From the IMG/VR virus record IMGVR_UViG_3300037297_000386: a stretch of DNA of 64,000 bases. One strand, written 5' to 3'. This DNA is from a virus. Taxonomy: Duplodnaviria > Caudoviricetes. The translations under genes and the position numbers were made by a program. Of this stretch, positions 36,240-62,471 are shown one piece after another. The notes beneath the pieces are model-generated. The model was not told the origin of the DNA. It made no database searches and worked only from the letters and a program-made list of their open reading frames with translations. Every line of letters starts with the position of its first letter. Within the stretch, counting starts at the first letter, position 1.

Positions 36240-36346
36240 CCGATCCTTTTTTGTTAATTTTCACCAACAACGCTACTGTTTAAGCAAGGTGAATCTCTCA
36301 ATGCCCTAAGTAAAATTCCTAGAGCTCCGTTTATATCTCGATCCAT
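36240..36346 (-). pseudogene. tnpB: 3'-terminal relic of a tnpB gene (IS607-associated type) plus putative transposon right end
   Basis: Mini-ORF 36346-36254 reads MDRDINGALGILLRALRDSPCLNSSVVGEN, matching the TnpB RuvC-III motif DRDxNGAxxI. It is followed by ...AAAAAAGGATCGG, and its last 32 bp recur at 35167-35198. Confidence 0.7.
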
Positions 36347-36366
36347 TTTCTTACCTCTCATATATA

Positions 36367-48137: not shown

Positions 48138-48291
48138 CGAGTTCTCCAGCCAAACAAACAATCTCTTCACATTGCTTTTTTGTCTTATATATCTCTTCTG
48201 GAATTCTTGCTTTTAGTGTCCGATTTAATTGATCAACGTAAGCCTTAAGTATCATCAAAAATTTTTCAAAATTTTTATCATTAGTATCCAT
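48118..48291 (-). CDS. Small hypothetical protein (~57 aa)
   Basis: ATG at 48291 with GAGGT SD (MDTNDKNFEKF...). Overlaps the start of the next gene. Confidence 0.45.
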   Translation of the reverse strand: MDTNDKNFEKFLMILKAYVDQLNRTLKARIPEEIYKTKKQCEEIVCLAGELDDCFRK

Positions 48292-48570
48292 TTTTATTCG
48301 AACCTCATGTTTATTTGCCCTATCCATTACCCATTTGATACATAAGATGTTTCCATCCAATAACTACCAGTATAAACTAATGTTAATGCTCTACAAACAG
48401 ACACAGTGTGCCCAGCATTCAACACCAAATCATTAAGCTGTATCAGCTCCTAAGTTTAATGCTTCTGTTCTTGCATATGTTCTGTTATCTGTCCCAGAGC
48501 TTAGTTGCAGTGGGCGTGGATATATCTATCTCCAAGTTTCATGCGAGAAACTTTTTCCAGTTAATATCCA

Positions 48571-50080: not shown

Positions 50081-50368
50081 TTATCCCCATACTTCCACTC
50101 TTACAATGCAACTTGTGCCGTTAGAAGAAAGTCTCAACCATATTTTACACTCATGTCTATTATCAAACACAATTCCCGCCGATGGAAGATCAGGATCTAA
50201 TGTACCATGTACATTAACACCATCAAAACTATATTCTATAATTCTACCAGATGTAGTATTCTCATTTAACAAAGCTATACCAGCACTATTAAAACCCCAA
50301 GATAATTCGACATCTTCGAACCACACGGATGAGACTGTCACTCTTTCAAAAAAGTTATATTTACTCAT
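50081..50368 (-). CDS. Small probable virion beta-sandwich protein
   Basis: ATG at 50368 with GGAG SD. IEYSFDG..VHG.L.P...FDNR..KIWLR. Confidence 0.6.
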   Translation of the reverse strand: MSKYNFFERVTVSSVWFEDVELSWGFNSAGIALLNENTTSGRIIEYSFDGVNVHGTLDPDLPSAGIVFDNRHECKIWLRLSSNGTSCIVRVEVWG

Positions 50369-50477
50369 CAAGCTCTCCAAACACTATATTATATTTTCTA
50401 TTTAATTTTATAGTCTCGTCTTAATATAGGAAATTAGCTGTAGATTTTTCGACCAAATTTCCTCCGTACTCAAGAAT

Positions 50478-50606
50478 ATATAGTTCCCTAAAATATGGTC
50501 ATTTGTGACCAATAAGTTCTTGGGTAGAGGAGACTATAGGCTTCCTCCTTGAAACATTCCAATAGAAATCTTTCCTATTCCGATGTTCCAATCGTTGCTT
50601 CTGGCT
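50478..50606 (-). repeat. 129-bp structured element, copy 2 (inverted relative to 54667-54795); candidate TnpB omegaRNA scaffold/IS end
   Basis: 121/129 nt identical to the reverse complement of 54667-54795. Contains stems TTGGAACA/TGTTTCAA, GAGGA/TCCTC and TGGTCA-CAAA-TGACCA. Confidence 0.85.
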
Positions 50607-50678
50607 GATTACAAATTATTTATAGAAACCATAAATACTTAATATTACTCATAATATTCTCCTCAAATGTTTTTTCGA

Positions 50679-51530
50679 TTATGACAAGTTAATTGTTTGG
50701 CTTGAATATTTATTATAAATCTTCATAAATCTATCATACTTTCTTTCTAAAAATAAATCAGAATCATTATATAATATATTAAATAAATTTATATTCTTAA
50801 CTATTCCATTAACGGCCACATGGTATATTTTAGAACCATTTCTGTTTATATTATATACTTTGGCATCTATCCCTATCTTATTATATAACGACAATAAATC
50901 GTATGAAAAACCATTGCTTGTTGTAAATATAGTAGTTCGCGGCTTTTTTACTTGAACTGTTCCGTCGCCATCTATAACCCCTCGAAGAAAATCACCAATA
51001 CAGTTATCTGGAATCTTTGGGCACCTAAGTGTTTTAGTCTTTCTTAAAGTCATATTCAAGTTCATTAAATCTTTACATATTTCTTGATTTCTAATAACCA
51101 AACGTGACATATTTTTATTCTCATATATTATATAATTACTGTTCATCTTGTCATTTATTTTTTCAAGTATATATTTATCATCATGTTTAAGTCCCAATGA
51201 TAATATATAATAATCCCTATTCTTACGTTTTGATATACATCCATCAGTTAACAAAAGTCCCAGTATATATGCATTTTCTCTGGTCACAGCGGAAAAATAT
51301 TTAGAGTTAATATTATATTTTTTTGTTTTCCCTGTATTAGATTTCTTATGTAAATAACTTATTATGCTTTCATCTCTCCGTATTTTTAATACTTTATTAC
51401 CATATTGATATATTGCACTCCACTTTCTTCCTAACATTTTTTCTGCTTCTAATGGCATAACTGAAGCAAAATGGCTTTTCATATACTTGGTTTCGTCTTC
51501 AGACCATTTACGTTTCATTAACAGCCACAT
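50679..51530 (-). CDS. Free-standing LAGLIDADG homing endonuclease
   Basis: YILGLLLTDG and FLRGVIDGDG motifs, C-terminal LERKY. The start may be ATG 51518. Confidence 0.85.
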   Translation of the reverse strand: MWLLMKRKWSEDETKYMKSHFASVMPLEAEKMLGRKWSAIYQYGNKVLKIRRDESIISYLHKKSNTGKTKKYNINSKYFSAVTRENAYILGLLLTDGCISKRKNRDYYILSLGLKHDDKYILEKINDKMNSNYIIYENKNMSRLVIRNQEICKDLMNLNMTLRKTKTLRCPKIPDNCIGDFLRGVIDGDGTVQVKKPRTTIFTTSNGFSYDLLSLYNKIGIDAKVYNINRNGSKIYHVAVNGIVKNINLFNILYNDSDLFLERKYDRFMKIYNKYSSQTINLS

Positions 51531-51540
51531 CCTAATATTA

Positions 51541-52425
51541 TCATATTATCCGACGTTCTCTCAAATGTCGGAGGCGCAAATATGCTGGACTTATTGCTGT
51601 AACGCGAAATGTGCCGAGACCAAGAGGGTTTGGTTTAAGTGAACATTTTATCATTTTCAATTTTTCTTTATAATCCTGCAGTTGTGTACTATATTGCGTA
51701 TTTAATATTTCAGACACAGCTGGCGGCTGATAGGTTACGCCATTGTCTGTTATATTAAACTCCCGACCTTTTTCAATAAGCGCCTGAGCGGCAAGGGCCA
51801 ACAAAACAGCACCTTGTACAACTACTTCAGCAAATATTTCGTATATTTGTGGATCAGAAAATTTAAATTGACTAAAATGAGGATATTGGTTGAAACTCGA
51901 TAGACTATTTACTAAAAAACAAATAAGTTCAGTGTCCGTAAATATAGAACAGGGTACATCAACATATTCATTACCGTCTCTTACTTTTCGGGTTCCATCA
52001 TTTTTGACTCTACATTTTACCATTTTCAAAAGTATATTAATCCCATAAACTTCTTCTTTAGTAAAATTCCATGGCACCGGATCTCCAGGTGAAAAAATTG
52101 GTAAATCACTTTCTATAACATCACCAGAAGATATAACCATAAATTCGAAAGTATTCTCTACCTCAGTACCACCAATCTCAGCGACCCACCTGTGATACCA
52201 ATATCCATCCGGCGCATTCTCTGGAATATCATAATTTAAATAATATAATCCATCTTGGTTATCTGAAATCAAACCAACGCCAATATTAGACAACCTTCTT
52301 TGTATTGTTTCAGTAGAATCGTAAATCTCCACCTGAGGTGTATCATCAGCATTAACTGGGTTACCAACTGAATCTACAAATCTCACGTAAAGATCTACAT
52401 CTCTACCACGAATTCCGATGGCCAT
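51541..52425 (-). CDS. Probable head-tail adaptor/neck protein
   Basis: N-terminal beta-sandwich plus C-terminal helical region (EF.ITDNGVTYQPP.VSE.L). Located between head and neck genes; synteny-based call. Confidence 0.5.
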   Translation of the reverse strand: MAIGIRGRDVDLYVRFVDSVGNPVNADDTPQVEIYDSTETIQRRLSNIGVGLISDNQDGLYYLNYDIPENAPDGYWYHRWVAEIGGTEVENTFEFMVISSGDVIESDLPIFSPGDPVPWNFTKEEVYGINILLKMVKCRVKNDGTRKVRDGNEYVDVPCSIFTDTELICFLVNSLSSFNQYPHFSQFKFSDPQIYEIFAEVVVQGAVLLALAAQALIEKGREFNITDNGVTYQPPAVSEILNTQYSTQLQDYKEKLKMIKCSLKPNPLGLGTFRVTAISPAYLRLRHLRERRII

Positions 52426-52447
52426 ACAATGTGCCTCCAGCTAGAAT

Positions 52448-53221
52448 TTATTTTTCTTTGCTAGATTTTGGTCTTTTTATAACAACATTTTTATTTTCTT
52501 TTGGTTTATCTTCCTCTCTAATTTCCATAATCACTGAACCATCTTGCGTCTTAACTGCAACTTCATCAACAGATTTTATTTCTTCCTGTACTTCTTGATG
52601 ATTTTTATTATCCGCAATATCGGGGTCGATCACTGTAAACGGCTTTTCTGCAGTTACTACTGAAGATTTTGCAATAGGCCCAATAGGATTTACCATTGCT
52701 TCACGCGTGACTTTCATTACTACCTGTGACTGTTGAGATGTTCCATATTCGATCTCTGGTTTTAAAACAGCATCATCTTTTAATTTTTCTTCTTTTTCCG
52801 ATTTTGTGTTTGTCACTACGGAACCGTTTTCTTGTTTTTCATGTATAACCGGATTAAGATCACCTATACCATAATCAGCAAAATCAAAAACATCATCTTC
52901 ATTCCCACCATCAAAATTTGTCTCGATTACCACAGAGGTCTTAGTTTTTTTTGCATGAACAGTACCATCACTTTGTTTAATACGATTCAAATCTGGCGGA
53001 ACAGGATTAACTTGTTTACGCACAACATGTAATGTGTTAGAATCAAGTCGTCTACGCAAAGATCCATTTTTTATAGACAGATTGACTTGTGCAACAGTTA
53101 TATATGGATTAACCTTATACACATTAACAGTTTTTCCGGCTCGAACTTTAACACCCAAATCACTCAAACTAACATCCGAAGTACCTGGATTGCGCAACCA
53201 TAATTCTTTATTGTCTATCAT
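52448..53221 (-). CDS. Hypothetical protein (257 aa)
   Basis: Compact N-terminal domain and low-complexity acidic C-terminus. Confidence 0.6.
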   Translation of the reverse strand: MIDNKELWLRNPGTSDVSLSDLGVKVRAGKTVNVYKVNPYITVAQVNLSIKNGSLRRRLDSNTLHVVRKQVNPVPPDLNRIKQSDGTVHAKKTKTSVVIETNFDGGNEDDVFDFADYGIGDLNPVIHEKQENGSVVTNTKSEKEEKLKDDAVLKPEIEYGTSQQSQVVMKVTREAMVNPIGPIAKSSVVTAEKPFTVIDPDIADNKNHQEVQEEIKSVDEVAVKTQDGSVIMEIREEDKPKENKNVVIKRPKSSKEK

Positions 53222-53224
53222 ATC

Positions 53225-53470
53225 TTACTCCTTACTTTCTAATACTTCACCTAAAACTTTCACATTGACGGCTTGTGGCCCCTTATGGTTTTCTCCTAAT
53301 TCGAAAGATACTGGTTGCCCTGGTTTTAATGTTTTAAAGCCAGGCATATCAATATTTGTCCAATGTACAAACAAATCTTTTTCACCATTATCTCTTACTA
53401 CATATCCATAACCTCTACGGTGATCAAACCAAGCTACAAGCCCAGTTAAATCATTGCTTAATTCTGTCAT
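53225..53470 (-). CDS. cspA: Cold-shock domain protein
   Basis: G.V.WFD..RGYGY (RNP1), DLFVHWTNI (RNP2), GFKTLKPGQ.V.FE, KGPQA.NV. Confidence 0.9.
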   Translation of the reverse strand: MTELSNDLTGLVAWFDHRRGYGYVVRDNGEKDLFVHWTNIDMPGFKTLKPGQPVSFELGENHKGPQAVNVKVLGEVLESKE

Positions 53471-54351
53471 TTCTTATCTCCTTCTCTCGGGCATTTTGCC
53501 CACTTTTTTAAGTTATCTTCGGCCCACAATGGCTGAAGGTTTGTGTAATTACAGACTTTCTTAACATGCTCTCTATTAGTTAAGTCAAAACTAGATAGTG
53601 GAATAATATGATCTATATGCCACCTTCCATAATTATCCCAGGTCATGCCAATCTCGAATTTCTTTTCAAGATATAATTTTAATTCTTTTATAGAACATCC
53701 AAGATCTGCAACGGCTGAACCAGCACGATATCCTTTTTTAACTGCTTGATAGAACCTAGTTCTAAGTTTTTTCCTGATTTGTGCTGTTATACTGTTTTTT
53801 ATATACCGTTGCTCACGTGCTATTATTTCGTCTCTATTTTCTTTATACCGTTGTCTTTTTTCAGATAATATGCGTTCCTTATTTCTTTCATACCAATTCT
53901 TTTTTCTTTTAGCACATGCTTCTTTGTTTTTCTCGACATACTCTTTTTGTTTTATGGTCAATCTTGCCTTATTTTTCTCTCGATATTTTTTACTACCATT
54001 TTTTATAGATTCTTTGTTGTTTTCCCTATATTTTTTACAGCGGTCCTTATTCTTAGTGTGCCATTCAGCACTTTCTTTGCGTCTGCAATACTTACAACGG
54101 CTCTTTAACCCATCTTTAGTATTTTTACATCTACCAAAATTATCAACATCCAAAATTTTCATACATCTGCGACATTGTTTTTTATCATCTGAGTCTTGAT
54201 ATTCTATTTTGTTTGGGCCTTCTTTTTTCCATTTTTTAATATAATCGCGATGGCAATTTTTACATTGATTTCTAAGACCACTCGGACTGTCTTTTCGTCG
54301 ATAAAATCTAGAAAAATCTTTTAATTCTCCGCATTTACTACATTTCTTCAT
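53467..54351 (-). CDS. HNH-family endonuclease, paralog of 24573-25496
   Basis: KKCSKC and KQCRRC modules, WHIDHIIPL...NYTNLQPLWAEDNLKK. Confidence 0.85.
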   Translation of the reverse strand: MKKCSKCGELKDFSRFYRRKDSPSGLRNQCKNCHRDYIKKWKKEGPNKIEYQDSDDKKQCRRCMKILDVDNFGRCKNTKDGLKSRCKYCRRKESAEWHTKNKDRCKKYRENNKESIKNGSKKYREKNKARLTIKQKEYVEKNKEACAKRKKNWYERNKERILSEKRQRYKENRDEIIAREQRYIKNSITAQIRKKLRTRFYQAVKKGYRAGSAVADLGCSIKELKLYLEKKFEIGMTWDNYGRWHIDHIIPLSSFDLTNREHVKKVCNYTNLQPLWAEDNLKKWAKCPREGDKK

Positions 54352-54603
54352 GATTTTCCTCTTTATTAGAAAAATAGACCAATCCCTACATCTTAAATCA
54401 AAATATTAATAGAATTCTTAGATATTTCGACAGGTAGCATCCTTTCATCCTCCGATGCTAGCTCTAAAAGGATTGAAATAGCGCTTTTGATCGTTGAATA
54501 TCCGACTGACCAGAAATTATATAATCAGCACTACCGCTAAATTTGCTTATTATTTTGGCACGCTTTTTACGCACAAATGATCCCTCCATTTTAAGGTACA
54601 CTA

Positions 54604-54795
54604 ATGCCGAAGTGCGATTCGGATTATAACGCTGCCTGTAATATCGCTACGCCGTTGATGGCTATTAGCCAGAAGCAACGATTGGAACACAAAAATAGAA
54701 AAGGCTTTTATTGGAATGTTTCAAGGAGGAAGCCTATAGTCTCCTCTACCCAAGAACTTATTGGTCACAAATGACCATATTTTAGGGAACTATAT
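54604..54795 (+). pseudogene. tnpB: 3'-terminal relic of a tnpB/Cas12f-like gene overlapping copy 1 of the 129-bp element
   Basis: ORF 54604-54774 reads MPKCDSDYNAACNIATPLMAISQKQRLEHKNRKGFYW..., and DxDYNAAxNIA is the RuvC-III motif. 54667-54795 is repeated at 50478-50606. Confidence 0.65.
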
Positions 54796-54809
54796 TGGTG
54801 ATTTTTAGC

Positions 54810-55205
54810 TTAGATTGCAGCTAAATAAGAAATTAAATAAGAAGTTCTTAGAGATGAAATATCTCCATGCTCTGTATTGGTGGGCTCTAATAAAACTGTT
54901 CTTGCCGTAGGTATGCCAGTATAAGAATAATTTGACCGATGCGAATGATAGCGATCTTGGTTAGATAACCTATTTAAAAAATAAGTTAATTCTATATGAT
55001 TAAGTTTGCTATTAATTATTATATCGTCGCGCTGTTTGCATATATTAGCAGGTTTATGTTTCAATGAAGCAATAACTATTGGCACATAATTATCACACAA
55101 ACAACTATTTTTGTCTCTAACTATTTTAAATCCTTGAAAAAAATATAATTTTCCTAGGCCGTATTTCTTTTTAATCTTTTTTATAAGTTTATTTTTATAT
55201 TTCAT
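54810..55205 (-). CDS. Small paralog family member 6
   Basis: IKKKYGLGKLYF ... LRTSYLISYLAAI. Confidence 0.65.
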   Translation of the reverse strand: MKYKNKLIKKIKKKYGLGKLYFFQGFKIVRDKNSCLCDNYVPIVIASLKHKPANICKQRDDIIINSKLNHIELTYFLNRLSNQDRYHSHRSNYSYTGIPTARTVLLEPTNTEHGDISSLRTSYLISYLAAI

Positions 55206-59221: not shown

Positions 59222-59758
59222 TTAACCAACGGCTACATCTTTACGACCAACTGATACACCGCGTGGATTTACAATCCCGATACCAATGATCTCGTTGACT
59301 ACCCAGCCTAATTTCAGCTGCTTCGGCTCGTCGGCTGGTAGAACTTCGATGTCTTGACGAACTGGCATTACACCAACAAATTCTGGATCAGCTACACCGA
59401 AAACAGTACCAGTTGGAACAACCTTACTAACGATAAGGTCGGCACCCCATAGATGTGCGAAAAGACCAGTCTGAAGAATTTCGCGCTGAGTGACCATATC
59501 TAGCTCACCGCCAGTTCCTGCAGACTGTCCACCACCGGAACCCCAGTTTAGAATATCATTAAATTCAACAATATTCATTAGGAACTTGGTTGTAACAAGG
59601 TCCCATCGATCTACCTGAACTTTGATTTCTGAAAGATCACGCTTTAGTAACCCAGCATCAGCAATATCCTGAGCGGTATTTTCGCCACCAAGATTTGAGT
59701 CACCAGCATAATCCAAAGCTGAGAAAATGTTAGCATCTTCTTGTGCTTGAATTTCTTG
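59222..59758 (-). CDS. Major capsid protein, exon 3 (178 aa + stop)
   Basis: QEIQAQEDANIF...LWGADLIVSKVVP.G..FG.ADPEFVG.MPVRQDIEV...LGWVV.E.IGIGIVNPRGV, an HK97-fold-type C-terminus. Begins right after intron-terminal AACAAATTG. Confidence 0.85.
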   Translation of the reverse strand, partial: QEIQAQEDANIFSALDYAGDSNLGGENTAQDIADAGLLKRDLSEIKVQVDRWDLVTTKFLMNIVEFNDILNWGSGGGQSAGTGGELDMVTQREILQTGLFAHLWGADLIVSKVVPTGTVFGVADPEFVGVMPVRQDIEVLPADEPKQLKLGWVVNEIIGIGIVNPRGVSVGRKDVAVG

Positions 59759-60935
59759 CAATTTGTTAATAGTTTTTATAAACTTACCAAATCATTTCTG
59801 TTTGGTTCTACACCTTTCGGTATAGTTCAGACTGTATCATCATCTTCTTTAGAAGAGCTTGGCATATCAGTCGTTGAGAATTGGAGTAATTTATATTTCA
59901 TACAATCTATAACATATGGTTTTATAAGTTTTGTAAGCTTAATGCCATTTTTTTTATTAAATGATAAATAATAATATTTTTTATTCCTATTATTATATTC
60001 ACATACTTTAGAACTTATATTAAAATTTACATATATGGCGTTTTGTAACCTATAGTTTTCTTCTTTTGTGAATCCCTCTGTAGATAATTTCATATCATAC
60101 TTTCTGGTATGTCCATCATCCATATACCAAATTGCCATCGCATAGGCCGAAAGCATATTTGATATATTCTTTTTTATAACCTTTTTTGTATTATCATAAA
60201 ATAATTTATGTAAATAATTTAATTCATGATGACAGATAGTAGTTAAATTGTATGTGACAGAATTCCTTGAATTCTGTTGTACATTCTGTCGTATCTTGTT
60301 CACAAAATTATTAAGCACCTGTTTTTTATAATGCAAGTATGGTAATTGTTTTTTACAATGATTAACAACAAATCTTTTTGTCTTACCATTATCTATATGT
60401 CCATCACCAAGCAAAGAACCAATTATAAACTCTTTCTGTTTTCGTGTGAATGGAATTTTGCGTAAATGATAATATTTTCTTTCTACACTTCTTATCGGTT
60501 TTATTCCATATTCTCTAAACCATCTATAAATTGTTCTTTCTCCGACTCCATAATATTCTGCTAAAACCTTTATTCCTTTGTGTGTAGTTTCATATGCATG
60601 TATCAATTCGCTCTTACAAGGTATTTTCCTTTTGCACACATATCCTCTTGATTCTATACCAAATTTTTTGAACCACTTTCTAACAGTTTTAACGCTCACT
60701 CCATAATAATCACCAATTTGTTGCATTGTTTTCATCTGATTATTGTACAAATCACACAGATTTTCTTTTGTAGGCACTTTGGATTACTCCTTTTCTGCTG
60801 ATTGCCCGTATCATTTAATTATTTTTAACTTAGTTTGATTGTAAATTATATTTCAATATAAATTATTTATGACTAAGTATAATTAACATTCGGGGTTTCC
60901 AGCATATAGCCAAGTTTAGAGCCCGCCGGAAATTA
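59759..60935 (-). ncRNA. Group I self-splicing intron B (1177 nt) in the capsid gene, carrying a LAGLIDADG ORF
   Basis: P1 GCCCGU|...GCGGGC with a U.G pair at the splice site; P AUGCUGGAAA; Q AAUCAGCAG; P3 CUUGGC/GCCAAG; R UCAACGACUG; S GAUACAGUC; P9 GAAA tetraloop; terminal G at 59759. Confidence 0.9.
59827..60777 (-). CDS. Intron-encoded LAGLIDADG endonuclease with two N-terminal HTH repeats
   Basis: FIIGSLLGDG and AIWYMDDG. GTG start with an AAGGAG SD just after Q. Its 3' end overlaps P7/P8/S. Confidence 0.85.
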   Translation of the reverse strand: MPTKENLCDLYNNQMKTMQQIGDYYGVSVKTVRKWFKKFGIESRGYVCKRKIPCKSELIHAYETTHKGIKVLAEYYGVGERTIYRWFREYGIKPIRSVERKYYHLRKIPFTRKQKEFIIGSLLGDGHIDNGKTKRFVVNHCKKQLPYLHYKKQVLNNFVNKIRQNVQQNSRNSVTYNLTTICHHELNYLHKLFYDNTKKVIKKNISNMLSAYAMAIWYMDDGHTRKYDMKLSTEGFTKEENYRLQNAIYVNFNISSKVCEYNNRNKKYYYLSFNKKNGIKLTKLIKPYVIDCMKYKLLQFSTTDMPSSSKEDDDTV

Positions 60936-61144
60936 ACGGGCTTTTTGCTGAGCACGGTCAATTACATTAAATCGACGCCTTTTAACTTCAGCAATACGAA
61001 CGGTCGGGTTAGAAACAACCTCGAATTCTGGAACACTTACACGATCTGAAAATGCACGTGATTCAGGAGCAGAACCGTTACTAGAAATAACAACGGCTGC
61101 CACATCGATATCTCTATCGTAGACAGGTAAAGCACCTTGTGGTA
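60936..61144 (-). CDS. Major capsid protein, exon 2 (209 nt; not in the ORF track)
   Basis: TA CCA CAA GGT... reads (L)PQGALPVYDRDIDVAAVVISSNGSAPESRAFSDRVSVPEFEVVSNPTVRIAEVKRRRFNVIDRAQQKAR, in phase with both neighbouring exons. Confidence 0.9.
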
Positions 61145-62191
61145 CAATTTGTTACTCATCGTTAAGATGGGCCGAATCATCTCTGTTCGGCTCTACATAT
61201 CTCTATGTAGTTCAGACTATATCATCACCTCTTTTTGAGGGTTTAGCATTTAGTCGTTGAGGGACGGCAAAATTTTATACATAAAATCTTTCAGTATATA
61301 TTGCCTAACCAAGTTAGATAACAATTGTGAGTTTCTCTTGTTGATTGATATATAATAGTATTCTTTCTGGTTTCTATTATATTTTGCAATTTTAGATCTC
61401 ACATTAAATTTTGATTTCAGCATACTCTGTAAAATCAACTGTTCTTTGTACGAGAAACTATCAGTCGAAAGCCTTATGTTACACCTATTGTTTAGTGTTC
61501 CGTCATCCATTATCCAATATGCTAAAGATCTTTCAGTTACATAATTGGATAGCTCTTGACGAATTACTTTTTTGTTATTTTCATAAAACAAGTGTCTAAA
61601 GAATCTGAAATCATTATGTACTACTGTGACAAAAGAATACATTACAGAATTTTTTCTTTTATCTTCCTTCTTGTTTATAGAATTAACTAAATTCCCAAGA
61701 ATTGCCTTCTTGTGTAACACCAATGATTTTTGTTTTTCGCAATGTCCTATTTGAAGCCTACAACTTTTGTTCTTTCTTCCATGTTCACCAACAAATCCAT
61801 CGCCAAGAAGAGTTCCAACAACCATCTCTTTTTGCTCTTTTGTAAGTGGGACTTTCTTAATTAGTTCATATTTTCTTTGTTTCGGATTAGCATCAATATT
61901 TAGAATATAGAACCATCGATTAATAGTCTTTCGACTAACCTGATATATCTCTGCTATTTCGTAAGTTGTAAGTCTTCTATCAACATAAAGTTTTATCAAC
62001 TCGTTTCTGCTTGGTCTCTTCATTCTACCTTCCCTGCTGATTGTCTGCGTATCAAAAGTTTTAACTTAGGTACTGTTTTAGATTATCTTCTGTGAGTAAT
62101 CTGTATTTTCCTAAGTATTTCGATCTTCCAGACTTCCCAGCATACAGCCAAATTTTTCCTAAAATATTGCTATTTTAGGCCGCTACCGTTA
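61145..62191 (-). ncRNA. Group I self-splicing intron A (1047 nt) in the capsid gene, carrying a LAGLIDADG ORF
   Basis: P1 CCGU|UA-ACGG-UAGCGG; P10 GGUA pairs with exon UACC; P2 with GCAA loop; P AUGCUGGGAA; Q AAUCAGCAG; R UCAACGACUA; S GAUAUAGUC; P9 GAGA loop; terminal G at 61145. Confidence 0.9.
61250..62023 (-). CDS. Intron-encoded LAGLIDADG endonuclease with N-terminal HTH
   Basis: MVVGTLLGDG and AYWIMDDG. Starts just after Q and its stop codon lies in the R element. Confidence 0.85.
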   Translation of the reverse strand: MKRPSRNELIKLYVDRRLTTYEIAEIYQVSRKTINRWFYILNIDANPKQRKYELIKKVPLTKEQKEMVVGTLLGDGFVGEHGRKNKSCRLQIGHCEKQKSLVLHKKAILGNLVNSINKKEDKRKNSVMYSFVTVVHNDFRFFRHLFYENNKKVIRQELSNYVTERSLAYWIMDDGTLNNRCNIRLSTDSFSYKEQLILQSMLKSKFNVRSKIAKYNRNQKEYYYISINKRNSQLLSNLVRQYILKDFMYKILPSLND

Positions 62192-62471
62192 ACGGATCCA
62201 CAACTAGAACTCTACGTCCAACGCCTTGATAATCTAAGTTTCTACGAATTGGATTAGCCATAGCTTGGCCTAATGCAACCTTACCTTCCGTGGTCATTAG
62301 AGCCCTACGAATTAGCTCATCTTTTTGCTCTTCTGTAAAAGAAGGCTGGCCAGCAAGACCCTGACTGGCCGATTGGTTATTCTGAATAATACTAGCATAC
62401 TTTACGATTTGTGCTAATGCATCGCGATCGCTAGCAGCATTCAGCTCACCATGGGTATTAAACAATGACAT
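62192..62471 (-). CDS. Major capsid protein, exon 1 (280 nt)
   Basis: AGGAGG SD. MSLFNTHGELNA...GKVALGQAMANPIRRNLDYQGVGRRVLVVDP. The in-frame stop at 62175 lies inside intron A. Confidence 0.9.

Follow-up and report, generated by a model that had tools for sequence, protein, structure and literature searches.

Inverted right-end copies of an IS607-type tnpB element with complete omegaRNA scaffolds in a phage genome

Introduction

A stretch of 64,000 nucleotides from the Caudoviricetes virus record IMGVR_UViG_3300037297_000386 contains the same 129-bp sequence twice. This whole stretch is called “the window” in the following, and all coordinates refer to it unless the complete 162,416-bp record is mentioned. 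The locus raises the question of what this sequence is, and whether its two copies are remnants of a mobile element or may still serve as guide RNAs. The initial annotation had suggested that the sequence is the C-terminal end of a TnpB nuclease overlapping its omegaRNA, and that one of the copies could be a stand-alone guide scaffold.

Results and Discussion

Two inverted copies of a 129-bp element

The reverse complement of positions 50478 to 50606 (copy A) aligned without gaps to positions 54667 to 54795 (copy B), with 121 of the 129 positions being identical, and no match was obtained when both were aligned in the same orientation. Copies A and B are an inverted repeat and not a direct one. 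Copy A is located on the minus strand, which is the sense of every sizeable gene in the window, so that its assignment to the operon sense in the initial annotation was correct, and copy B occupies the plus strand and runs antisense to the window genes.

50478..50606, minus strand: copy A, omegaRNA scaffold and right end, 5′-truncated to the last 38 tnpB codons (alignment; nhmmer)
54667..54795, plus strand: copy B, complete omegaRNA scaffold and right end (alignment; nhmmer)
54604..54774, plus strand: tnpB relic open reading frame of copy B, last 54 codons including the RuvC-III motif (tblastn; identity to TnpBs)

All eight differences are positioned within 19 nt of the element (positions 24, 25, 26, 27, 33, 38, 39, and 42), and when eight differences were placed at random, no case out of 200,000 was as tightly clustered. 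The degree of identity and the 19-nt patch had both been noted before and were reproduced by the ungapped alignment of the reverse complement. All 110 positions outside the variable patch are identical, including the last 87 nt, which agree to 100%. A core of 42 nt was found at exactly two places of the window, with zero occurrences expected. On the 5′ side, the similarity reaches 2 nt (AT) beyond the edge of the element, which results in a repeat of 131 bp in total, and outside this repeat A and B share nothing. On the 3′ side, the similarity ends sharply after ...GGGAACTATAT in both copies, again as described in the initial annotation.

The search for further copies that had been proposed there yielded one more. 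Copy C is located outside the window, at bases 2 to 109 of the 162,416-bp record, is 95% identical, and ends at the same GGGAACTATAT boundary as A and B. A family profile (nhmmer) found exactly these three copies, A, B, and C, in the record, with E values of 6.7e-21 for copy A and 2.3e-21 for copy B.

Identity of the element

The interpretation of the 129-bp element as the 3′ end of an IS607-type tnpB gene together with the complete omegaRNA scaffold, or right end, is well supported. The RuvC-III motif C-D-S-D-Y-N-A-A-C-N-I is located in frame ahead of copy B, and the 56-aa open reading frame at 54604 to 54774 is 80 to 93% identical to the C termini of the related TnpBs P0001 to P0005. Among these, P0001, P0002, P0004, and P0005 are 405-aa TnpBs and P0003 is a truncated form of 189 aa; P0002 to P0005 all come from a single 311,797-bp contig, which thus carries three full-length tnpB genes and a truncated one. 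Each copy in the window consists of the terminal tnpB codons (38 in A, 54 in B) plus about 21 nt of noncoding right end.

P0002 matched PF07282 with 58 bits, above the cut-off, and the guided_TnpB model NF040570 with an E value of 1.6e-21. Its nearest solved structures in a PDB search were Cas12f and TnpB proteins. The C-terminal RuvC/TNB region matched Cas12f structures 8J3R and 7WJU with an E value of 1e-15 and the TnpB chain 9NZP with 1.4e-8, so that in this region the IS607-linked TnpB clade is closer to solved Cas12f than to the TnpB chain found.

When viral contigs were searched with P0002, 21 related loci with 34 to 61% identity were obtained, mostly on contigs of 100 to 330 kb. A homologue of the element was present at the tnpB 3′ end in all of these first 21 loci and in 3 further full-length loci, and nhmmer detected no extra copy in the flanks of the 21. 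A lack of linkage between homologues and tnpB had been named as evidence against the initial annotation; linkage was found at all 21 loci. Together with the RuvC-III motif in frame, the identity to known C termini, and the covariation described below, this location at the tnpB 3′ end sustains the proposal of a TnpB C terminus overlapping its omegaRNA. A gene for an IS607 serine transposase is located directly upstream of tnpB in five relatives, L015, L022, L024, L025, and L026, as judged by NF033518 (168.6 bits in L015), by PF00239 (L015, L024, and L026), and by a C-terminal motif recognized by eye (L022 and L025). This indicates that the family is of the IS607 type.

When one genome for each prokaryotic species was scanned with P0002, only one 1.9-kb contig of a Bacteroidetes metagenome-assembled genome (MAG) was obtained, versus about 30 viral loci, and the clade therefore looks predominantly phage-borne; this single short contig gave no firm clue to the host. 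With near-identical records excluded, an exact 26-mer of the scaffold was absent from viral and genome contigs and an exact 22-mer from metagenome contigs, and megablast of positions 50300 to 55000 found no match among GenBank phages.

The record both starts and stops inside tnpB elements (1 to 109 and 161779 to 162416). Its last 636 bases encode 212 residues, of which 211 are identical to the N terminus of P0002, and end just after the RuvC-I motif G-L-D-I-G. At the other end, the C-terminal residues of copy C read E-L-I-G-H-K, compared to E-S-S-G-H-K in P0002. The N-terminal half of tnpB at the record end, together with copies A to C, indicates that the lineage carries several tnpB copies. 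A multi-copy insertion sequence of this kind evidently breaks up jumbo-phage assemblies. Five related viral contigs (L033, L041, L043, L047, and L048) also end inside the element.

Predicted fold of the scaffold

The folding of the scaffold was evaluated with 18 nonredundant sequences that had been aligned with MAFFT, with no structure fitting, and the pairs of the structure derived from copy A were subsequently counted in this alignment. A portion of 83.9% of the cells formed standard pairs, versus 39 to 50% when the 3′ partners were slid by one to three columns. The covariation score was 0.42 versus 0.18 in shuffled alignments, none of 500 of which reached 0.42, and both sides had changed in 16 pairs. 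Two stems and a pseudoknot of the predicted fold are supported by this covariation, and the folding and covariation analysis suggested in the initial annotation came out in its favor.

50549..50591, minus strand: stem 1 of copy A (54682-54724 in copy B)
50526..50548, minus strand: stem 2 of copy A, GGAGGA / UCCUCU (54725-54747 in copy B)
50486..50524, minus strand: stem 3 hairpin of copy A, which holds the tnpB stop codon (54749-54787 in copy B)
50479..50484, minus strand: 3′ strand of the pseudoknot of copy A, ACUAUA, directly before the guide (54789-54794 in copy B)

The outer helix of stem 1 is formed by UUGGAACA and UGUUUCAA, with all six outer pairs changed on both sides, and its apical hairpin, AAUAGGAA-AGA-UUUCUAUU, is encoded by the codons for N-R-x-G-F-Y-W. 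The 19-nt variable patch falls into this stem. The changes of the hairpin between A and B, a G-C to a G.U and a G.U to an A-U pair, are as originally described and leave the hairpin in place; two of the eight differences lose a pair in copy B, and four are in unpaired positions. In stem 2, all six positions are paired in 18 of 18 sequences, with four of the six pairs changed on both sides. Its loop contains the 5′ strand of the pseudoknot, UAUAGU, at 50533 to 50538 in copy A. The pseudoknot UAUAGU:ACUAUA was paired to 88.8% and appeared in the covarying forms UACAGU:ACUGU and UGUAGU:ACUAC. A hairpin that closes immediately ahead of the pseudoknot strand, as stem 3 does, was predicted in 17 of 18 sequences, with that of L019 being weak, and had a z score of −2 or lower in 11 of 18. 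The sequence of stem 3 is unrelated between the members, even though the hairpin recurs in nearly all of them.

As the apical hairpin encodes N-R-x-G-F-Y-W and the pseudoknot loop I-V-P, a dual coding and RNA constraint is real in the intact tnpB genes. No family of Rfam 15 gave a hit above the gathering threshold for the window or for eight related loci, and a search around copy B at E values up to 10 returned unrelated weak matches only.

Orphan status of the two copies

A tblastn search of the 162-kb record with the five TnpBs found residues 352 to 405 in copy B, 368 to 405 in copy A, 378 to 405 in copy C, which is cut by the start of the record, and the N-terminal half at the record end, and no whole, intact tnpB within the record. 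A cognate TnpB nuclease in cis was not found, and there was nothing TnpB-like upstream of 54604. Candidate frameshifted tnpB traces upstream of this position were rejected, since the best Smith-Waterman local scores between 54352 and 54612 were 23 to 26, below the mean of 30.4 for shuffled sequences. A left end, tnpB 5′ sequences, or a tnpA relic were found neither near A and B, where only AT-rich matches of up to 14 nt occurred, nor elsewhere in the record. The lack of a left end, of tnpA, and of a start codon in A or B means that both are orphan right ends and not genes.

Copy A contains the last 38 tnpB codons only, which agrees with the previous statement that it lacks the nuclease motif. 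It possesses no start codon, a stop codon is located immediately upstream, and the sequence K-G-F-Y is changed to K-D-F-Y, which replaces by aspartate the glycine of the G-F-(Y/F/C)-W motif that is invariant in 21 of 21 related loci and in P0001 to P0005. There is consequently no coding constraint on copy A. The dual constraint proposed in the initial annotation applies to the intact genes but not to this copy, and, for the same three reasons, its suggestion that the differences preserve the reading frame carries no meaning for copy A.

With neither tnpA nor both ends present, A and B are fragments and not complete IS607 elements. They also differ from miniature elements or PATEs in that both transposon ends are not kept. 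Derivatives that retained both ends do exist among the relatives. An internally deleted element in L050 (8063-8470) comprises the first approximately 55 and the last approximately 78 tnpB codons plus the scaffold. The related phage G001 (IMGVR_UViG_3300025310_000077) harbors a miniature IS607 element of about 330 bp in two full copies with different flanks, and a third right end that is cut by a contig end (L052:1345-1673, L055, and L056). In this miniature, the left end and the first approximately 30 tnpA codons, which encode the helix-turn-helix, are fused to the last approximately 41 tnpB codons and the scaffold, and all three right ends stop at GTAACTAT, after which the flanks diverge. It represents a derivative of a serine-recombinase element that is PATE-like and bears a guide. 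The 5′ edge of its tnpB remnant is within about 3 nt of the edge of copy A, which hints at the scaffold as the unit that may be retained. Since the search pattern for relics required the scaffold, scaffold retention is no evidence of selection.

A second, unrelated TnpB relic was observed on the minus strand at 36250 to 36350. It reads ...G-K-K-M-D-R-D-I-N-G-A-L-G-I-L..., with a RuvC-III motif of the D-R-D-x-N-G-A type, and is located in operon sense in the gap between the genes for a 332-aa and a 2141-aa virion protein.

Gene order around the copies

The copies enclose a segment of 4.06 kb that contains an HNH-like gene, the gene for a cold-shock protein (CSP), two virion-type genes, and a LAGLIDADG gene. 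The positions of two of these are as follows.

50679..51530, minus strand: LAGLIDADG homing-endonuclease gene (Pfam PF14528, E = 1.7e-13)
53467..54351, minus strand: 294-aa gene with the HNH-like C-terminal motif H-I-D-H...N-L-Q-P-L-W...N (motif identified by eye)

In gene sense, the order is g91...g131, copy B (antisense), the HNH-like gene, CSP, g257, g294, the LAGLIDADG gene, copy A (sense), g99, g410, g171, and g173. The LAGLIDADG gene precedes the truncated 5′ edge of copy A by 70 nt and has a homologous endonuclease gene at the same position in L027 and L028. It is followed by g99, a 99-aa gene at 50081 to 50380, with copy A about 100 nt upstream of g99. The HNH-like gene is located on the truncated 5′ side of copy B and is oriented divergently from it; it gave no Pfam or NCBIfam hit and has no counterpart in L027 to L030. 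The right ends of A and B face outward, with B terminating 14 nt beyond the g131 stop codon and A pointing at g99. A possible stem, UGGCUG...CAGCCA, that would have placed the LAGLIDADG gene inside it was discarded as a mere 6-nt complementarity, with the upstream sequence being unrelated to tnpB.

In the four relatives L027 to L030, the order is g99, CSP, g257, and g294; in L027 and L028, the LAGLIDADG gene and g171 follow before g173, and in L027 a homologue of g91 precedes g99. The adjacency of g99 and CSP in these relatives is broken in the window. Copy B and the HNH-like gene are now directly upstream of CSP, and the block bounded by the HNH-like and LAGLIDADG genes is now upstream of g99 and g410 (50081 to 54351 compared with L027 to L030). 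Both 5′ truncations coincide with the new gene-order junctions. Judged by these positions, a change in gene order that caused the truncations would most simply account for the missing remainder of each element. The genes g99, g410, and g171 are contiguous, so that no rejoining at the repeats restores the order of the relatives, which means that the rearrangement is not an artefact of repeat assembly.

A region of about 400 nt without a convincing open reading frame, at 48170 to 48570 between a 79-aa gene and g171, is located at or near a third rearrangement junction; no trace of TnpB or an omegaRNA was found in it. The comparison with the relatives also showed that the major capsid protein, present in L028 (1257-2285) as one uninterrupted open reading frame of 342 aa, matches two separate open reading frame pieces of the window (59222 to 62471) with 82 to 86% identity, which fits a capsid gene split by introns in the window.

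Sequences at the guide positions

The boundary between scaffold and guide was set from the three copies in the record and the three in G001. For copy A, it is where the initial annotation had placed it, since GGGAACTATAT is the last sequence shared by A, B, and C before they diverge.

50458..50477, minus strand: guide position of copy A, the 3′ flank directly after ...ACUAUAU, about 100 nt upstream of g99
54796..54815, plus strand: guide position of copy B, which runs into the stop codon of g131 (54810-55205, opposite strand)

No second match to either guide was found in the genome, only their own flanks. The 16-mer of guide A had five hits in viral contigs, none of them extending beyond the seed, and the upstream region of g99 in the four relatives was too diverged for an “empty-site” match to this guide. 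A 17-mer of guide B matched one phage present in two records (L062:2774-2793 and L063). The match is exact over 20 nt, the last 2 nt of the scaffold of copy B and the first 18 nt of guide B, and is located in noncoding DNA of a contig of about 81 kb and 44% GC content that shares no genes within 12 kb. By chance, about one or two 18-mers are expected in a collection of roughly 1e11 positions, and the public guide matches of 16 to 20 nt in unrelated contigs are probably due to chance. The target search of the 3′ flanks suggested in the initial annotation, when made in viral contigs, yielded only matches at about chance level in unrelated contigs.

The left flanks of the five tnpA-bearing relatives and of the two G001 miniatures, which end in ...AAAAT and ...TTTTA, gave no usable consensus for a TAM. 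A promoter and terminator scan of this AT-rich DNA revealed no evident promoter for copy B, and the sole “terminator” was stem 3.

Sequencing data and the reality of the junctions

Two sequencing runs, both of DNA, contain the region, and one of them is a wetland metagenome that is possibly the source of the record. Logan contigs of this run cover each junction between flank and element with zero mismatches, which indicates that both copies are real. The summed depth of the element was 120- to 300-fold, versus about 19-fold for unique phage DNA, a factor of 6 to 16, and this points to many more copies in the sample.

Such a depth, and the fact that the JGI record as well as the Logan contigs break in the element, could also mean that the orphan junctions are an assembly artefact resulting from a misjoined multi-copy repeat, which had been named in the initial annotation as a finding that would speak against the copies. 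This is extremely improbable. Separate contigs carry each junction of right end and flank without a mismatch, one contig of 4,065 nt reaches from the variable patch of copy A itself, on the LAGLIDADG side, to the truncated RuvC-III edge of copy B, and no rejoining of the three pieces gives the order of the relatives. The orientation of the 4.06-kb segment between A and B is another matter, as it is given by the record alone with the contigs breaking inside the repeat. An inverted repeat with a perfect stretch of 87 nt may serve as a recombination substrate that inverts this segment, in which case the RNA capacity of the element would be irrelevant, and the broken contigs would be compatible with the alternative orientation. 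We regard this explanation as very improbable, since no joint and no strand-switching contig was seen among the Logan contigs, the five enclosed genes are co-oriented with the late region and would be antisense in the inverted form, and the same element occurs elsewhere as single copies.

Copies A and B carry the minority allele of the sample at three positions. At one of these, 54727 (Arg versus Gly in S-R-R/G-K-P), their allele is shared with the truncated P0003 and not with the intact paralogues. In the 19-nt patch, A encodes E-H-R-N-R-K like P0001, and B encodes E-H-K-N-R-K. This mosaic pattern of variants fits a patchy exchange among paralogous copies.

Origin and possible function of the copies

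Copies A and B are likely transposon scars that retained an intact scaffold. They would be the orphan right ends of an IS607-type tnpB insertion sequence that is present in multiple copies in this jumbo-phage lineage, and whatever DNA follows a right end would take the guide position. The left end and about 350 tnpB codons were most likely lost by illegitimate recombination or deletion, and this loss may have been tied to the local change in gene order because both relics are located exactly at two new junctions. The clustered differences between A and B would result from patchy exchange with paralogous copies and not from selection on the orphans. Even as scars, the orphan scaffolds could be transcribed and loaded in trans by the apparently intact TnpB paralogues of the lineage. 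A counterpoint to the scar interpretation is that the full scaffold was kept in both copies, with the last 87 nt being identical despite different truncation points; such identical scaffolds could indicate selection or recent gene conversion instead of neutral decay.

Alternatively, A and B may be working stand-alone guides that are loaded in trans by TnpB paralogues and cut relic-free alleles, consisting of a TAM and the same flank, in co-infecting relatives. Copy A, which is co-oriented with all genes, would then be transcribed by read-through of the late operon, and repair would copy the relic and its homing-endonuclease-rich neighborhood into co-infecting relatives. The scaffolds are complete, with the pseudoknot and all stems, and their identity to copy C and to the C-terminal ends of apparently intact TnpB paralogues is about 95%. 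Moreover, TnpB turns its own transcript into omegaRNA (PMC10278001), use of TnpB in trans has been proposed for omegaRNA-bearing PATEs, which encode no TnpB themselves (PMC10055086; Meers et al. 2023), a homing role has been shown for IS605 and IS607 TnpBs (PMC10690162), and a miniature IS607 element that kept the scaffold has multiplied in the related phage G001. A working guide is nevertheless unlikely at this locus. The matches in the genome are the guides' own flanks only, those in public contigs are at chance level, and the 162-kb record contains no whole intact tnpB. Copy B runs against the direction of all genes, with no promoter evident for it, and the minority allele that A and B share with the truncated P0003, and not with the intact paralogues, fits an old, dying sublineage. 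It is quite unlikely that the extra guides were retained and drive the rearranged, homing-endonuclease-laden 4-kb block into co-infecting relatives by cutting the relic-free g131/g99 and CSP-upstream junctions. If true, a gene block with no transposon left in it would be spreading by RNA-guided “homing”.

Comparison with known systems

The family resembles known IS607 TnpB-omegaRNA elements, such as the IStron of C. botulinum (PMC10690162) and the RAGATH-18 type (PMC11061315), in that five relatives carry the serine-recombinase gene tnpA immediately before tnpB, the scaffold reaches from within the 3′ end of tnpB to the boundary of the right end, the adjacent DNA takes the place of the guide, and the element is present in multiple copies. 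No Rfam family, including RAGATH-18, matches the scaffold, however. It ends with ACUAUA(U) and not with ...UCGG, making a G-rich TAM of the TGGG type unlikely. Loci of the clade are nearly confined to phage contigs, and copies A and B do not possess tnpB, tnpA, or a left end.

The cryo-EM structure of the ISDra2 omegaRNA revealed a 116-nt scaffold, a 16-nt guide, and a pseudoknot formed by nucleotides just 5′ of the guide (PMC10097598). The scaffold described here, with about 116 to 130 nt and a guide of about 16 to 20 nt, is similar in its several stems, the guide-proximal pseudoknot, and the location of part of the scaffold within the tnpB C terminus. It has no sequence similarity to the ISDra2 omegaRNA, however, and its pseudoknot strand pairs with the middle stem's loop, which precedes it by about 50 nt, whereas the partner is a segment near the 5′ end in ISDra2, an element that belongs to the IS200/IS605 (Y1 transposase) family.

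Like PATEs, A and B represent omegaRNA scaffolds without a nuclease gene in cis, and any activity would need a TnpB from elsewhere; unlike A and B, which have no left end, PATEs keep both ends and can be mobilized. Orphan and miniature omegaRNA loci are thus already known in concept from the PATEs. New are the covariation-supported fold of an omegaRNA outside Rfam, from a phage-borne clade of IS607-type TnpBs close to Cas12f, the location of the two relics at synteny breakpoints, and the miniature IS607 element with the same scaffold in a related phage. The fold should help to annotate jumbo-phage genomes and to mine them for compact, Cas12f-like RNA-guided nucleases, and this one genome shows the decay of elements to guide-only right ends at gene-order breakpoints.
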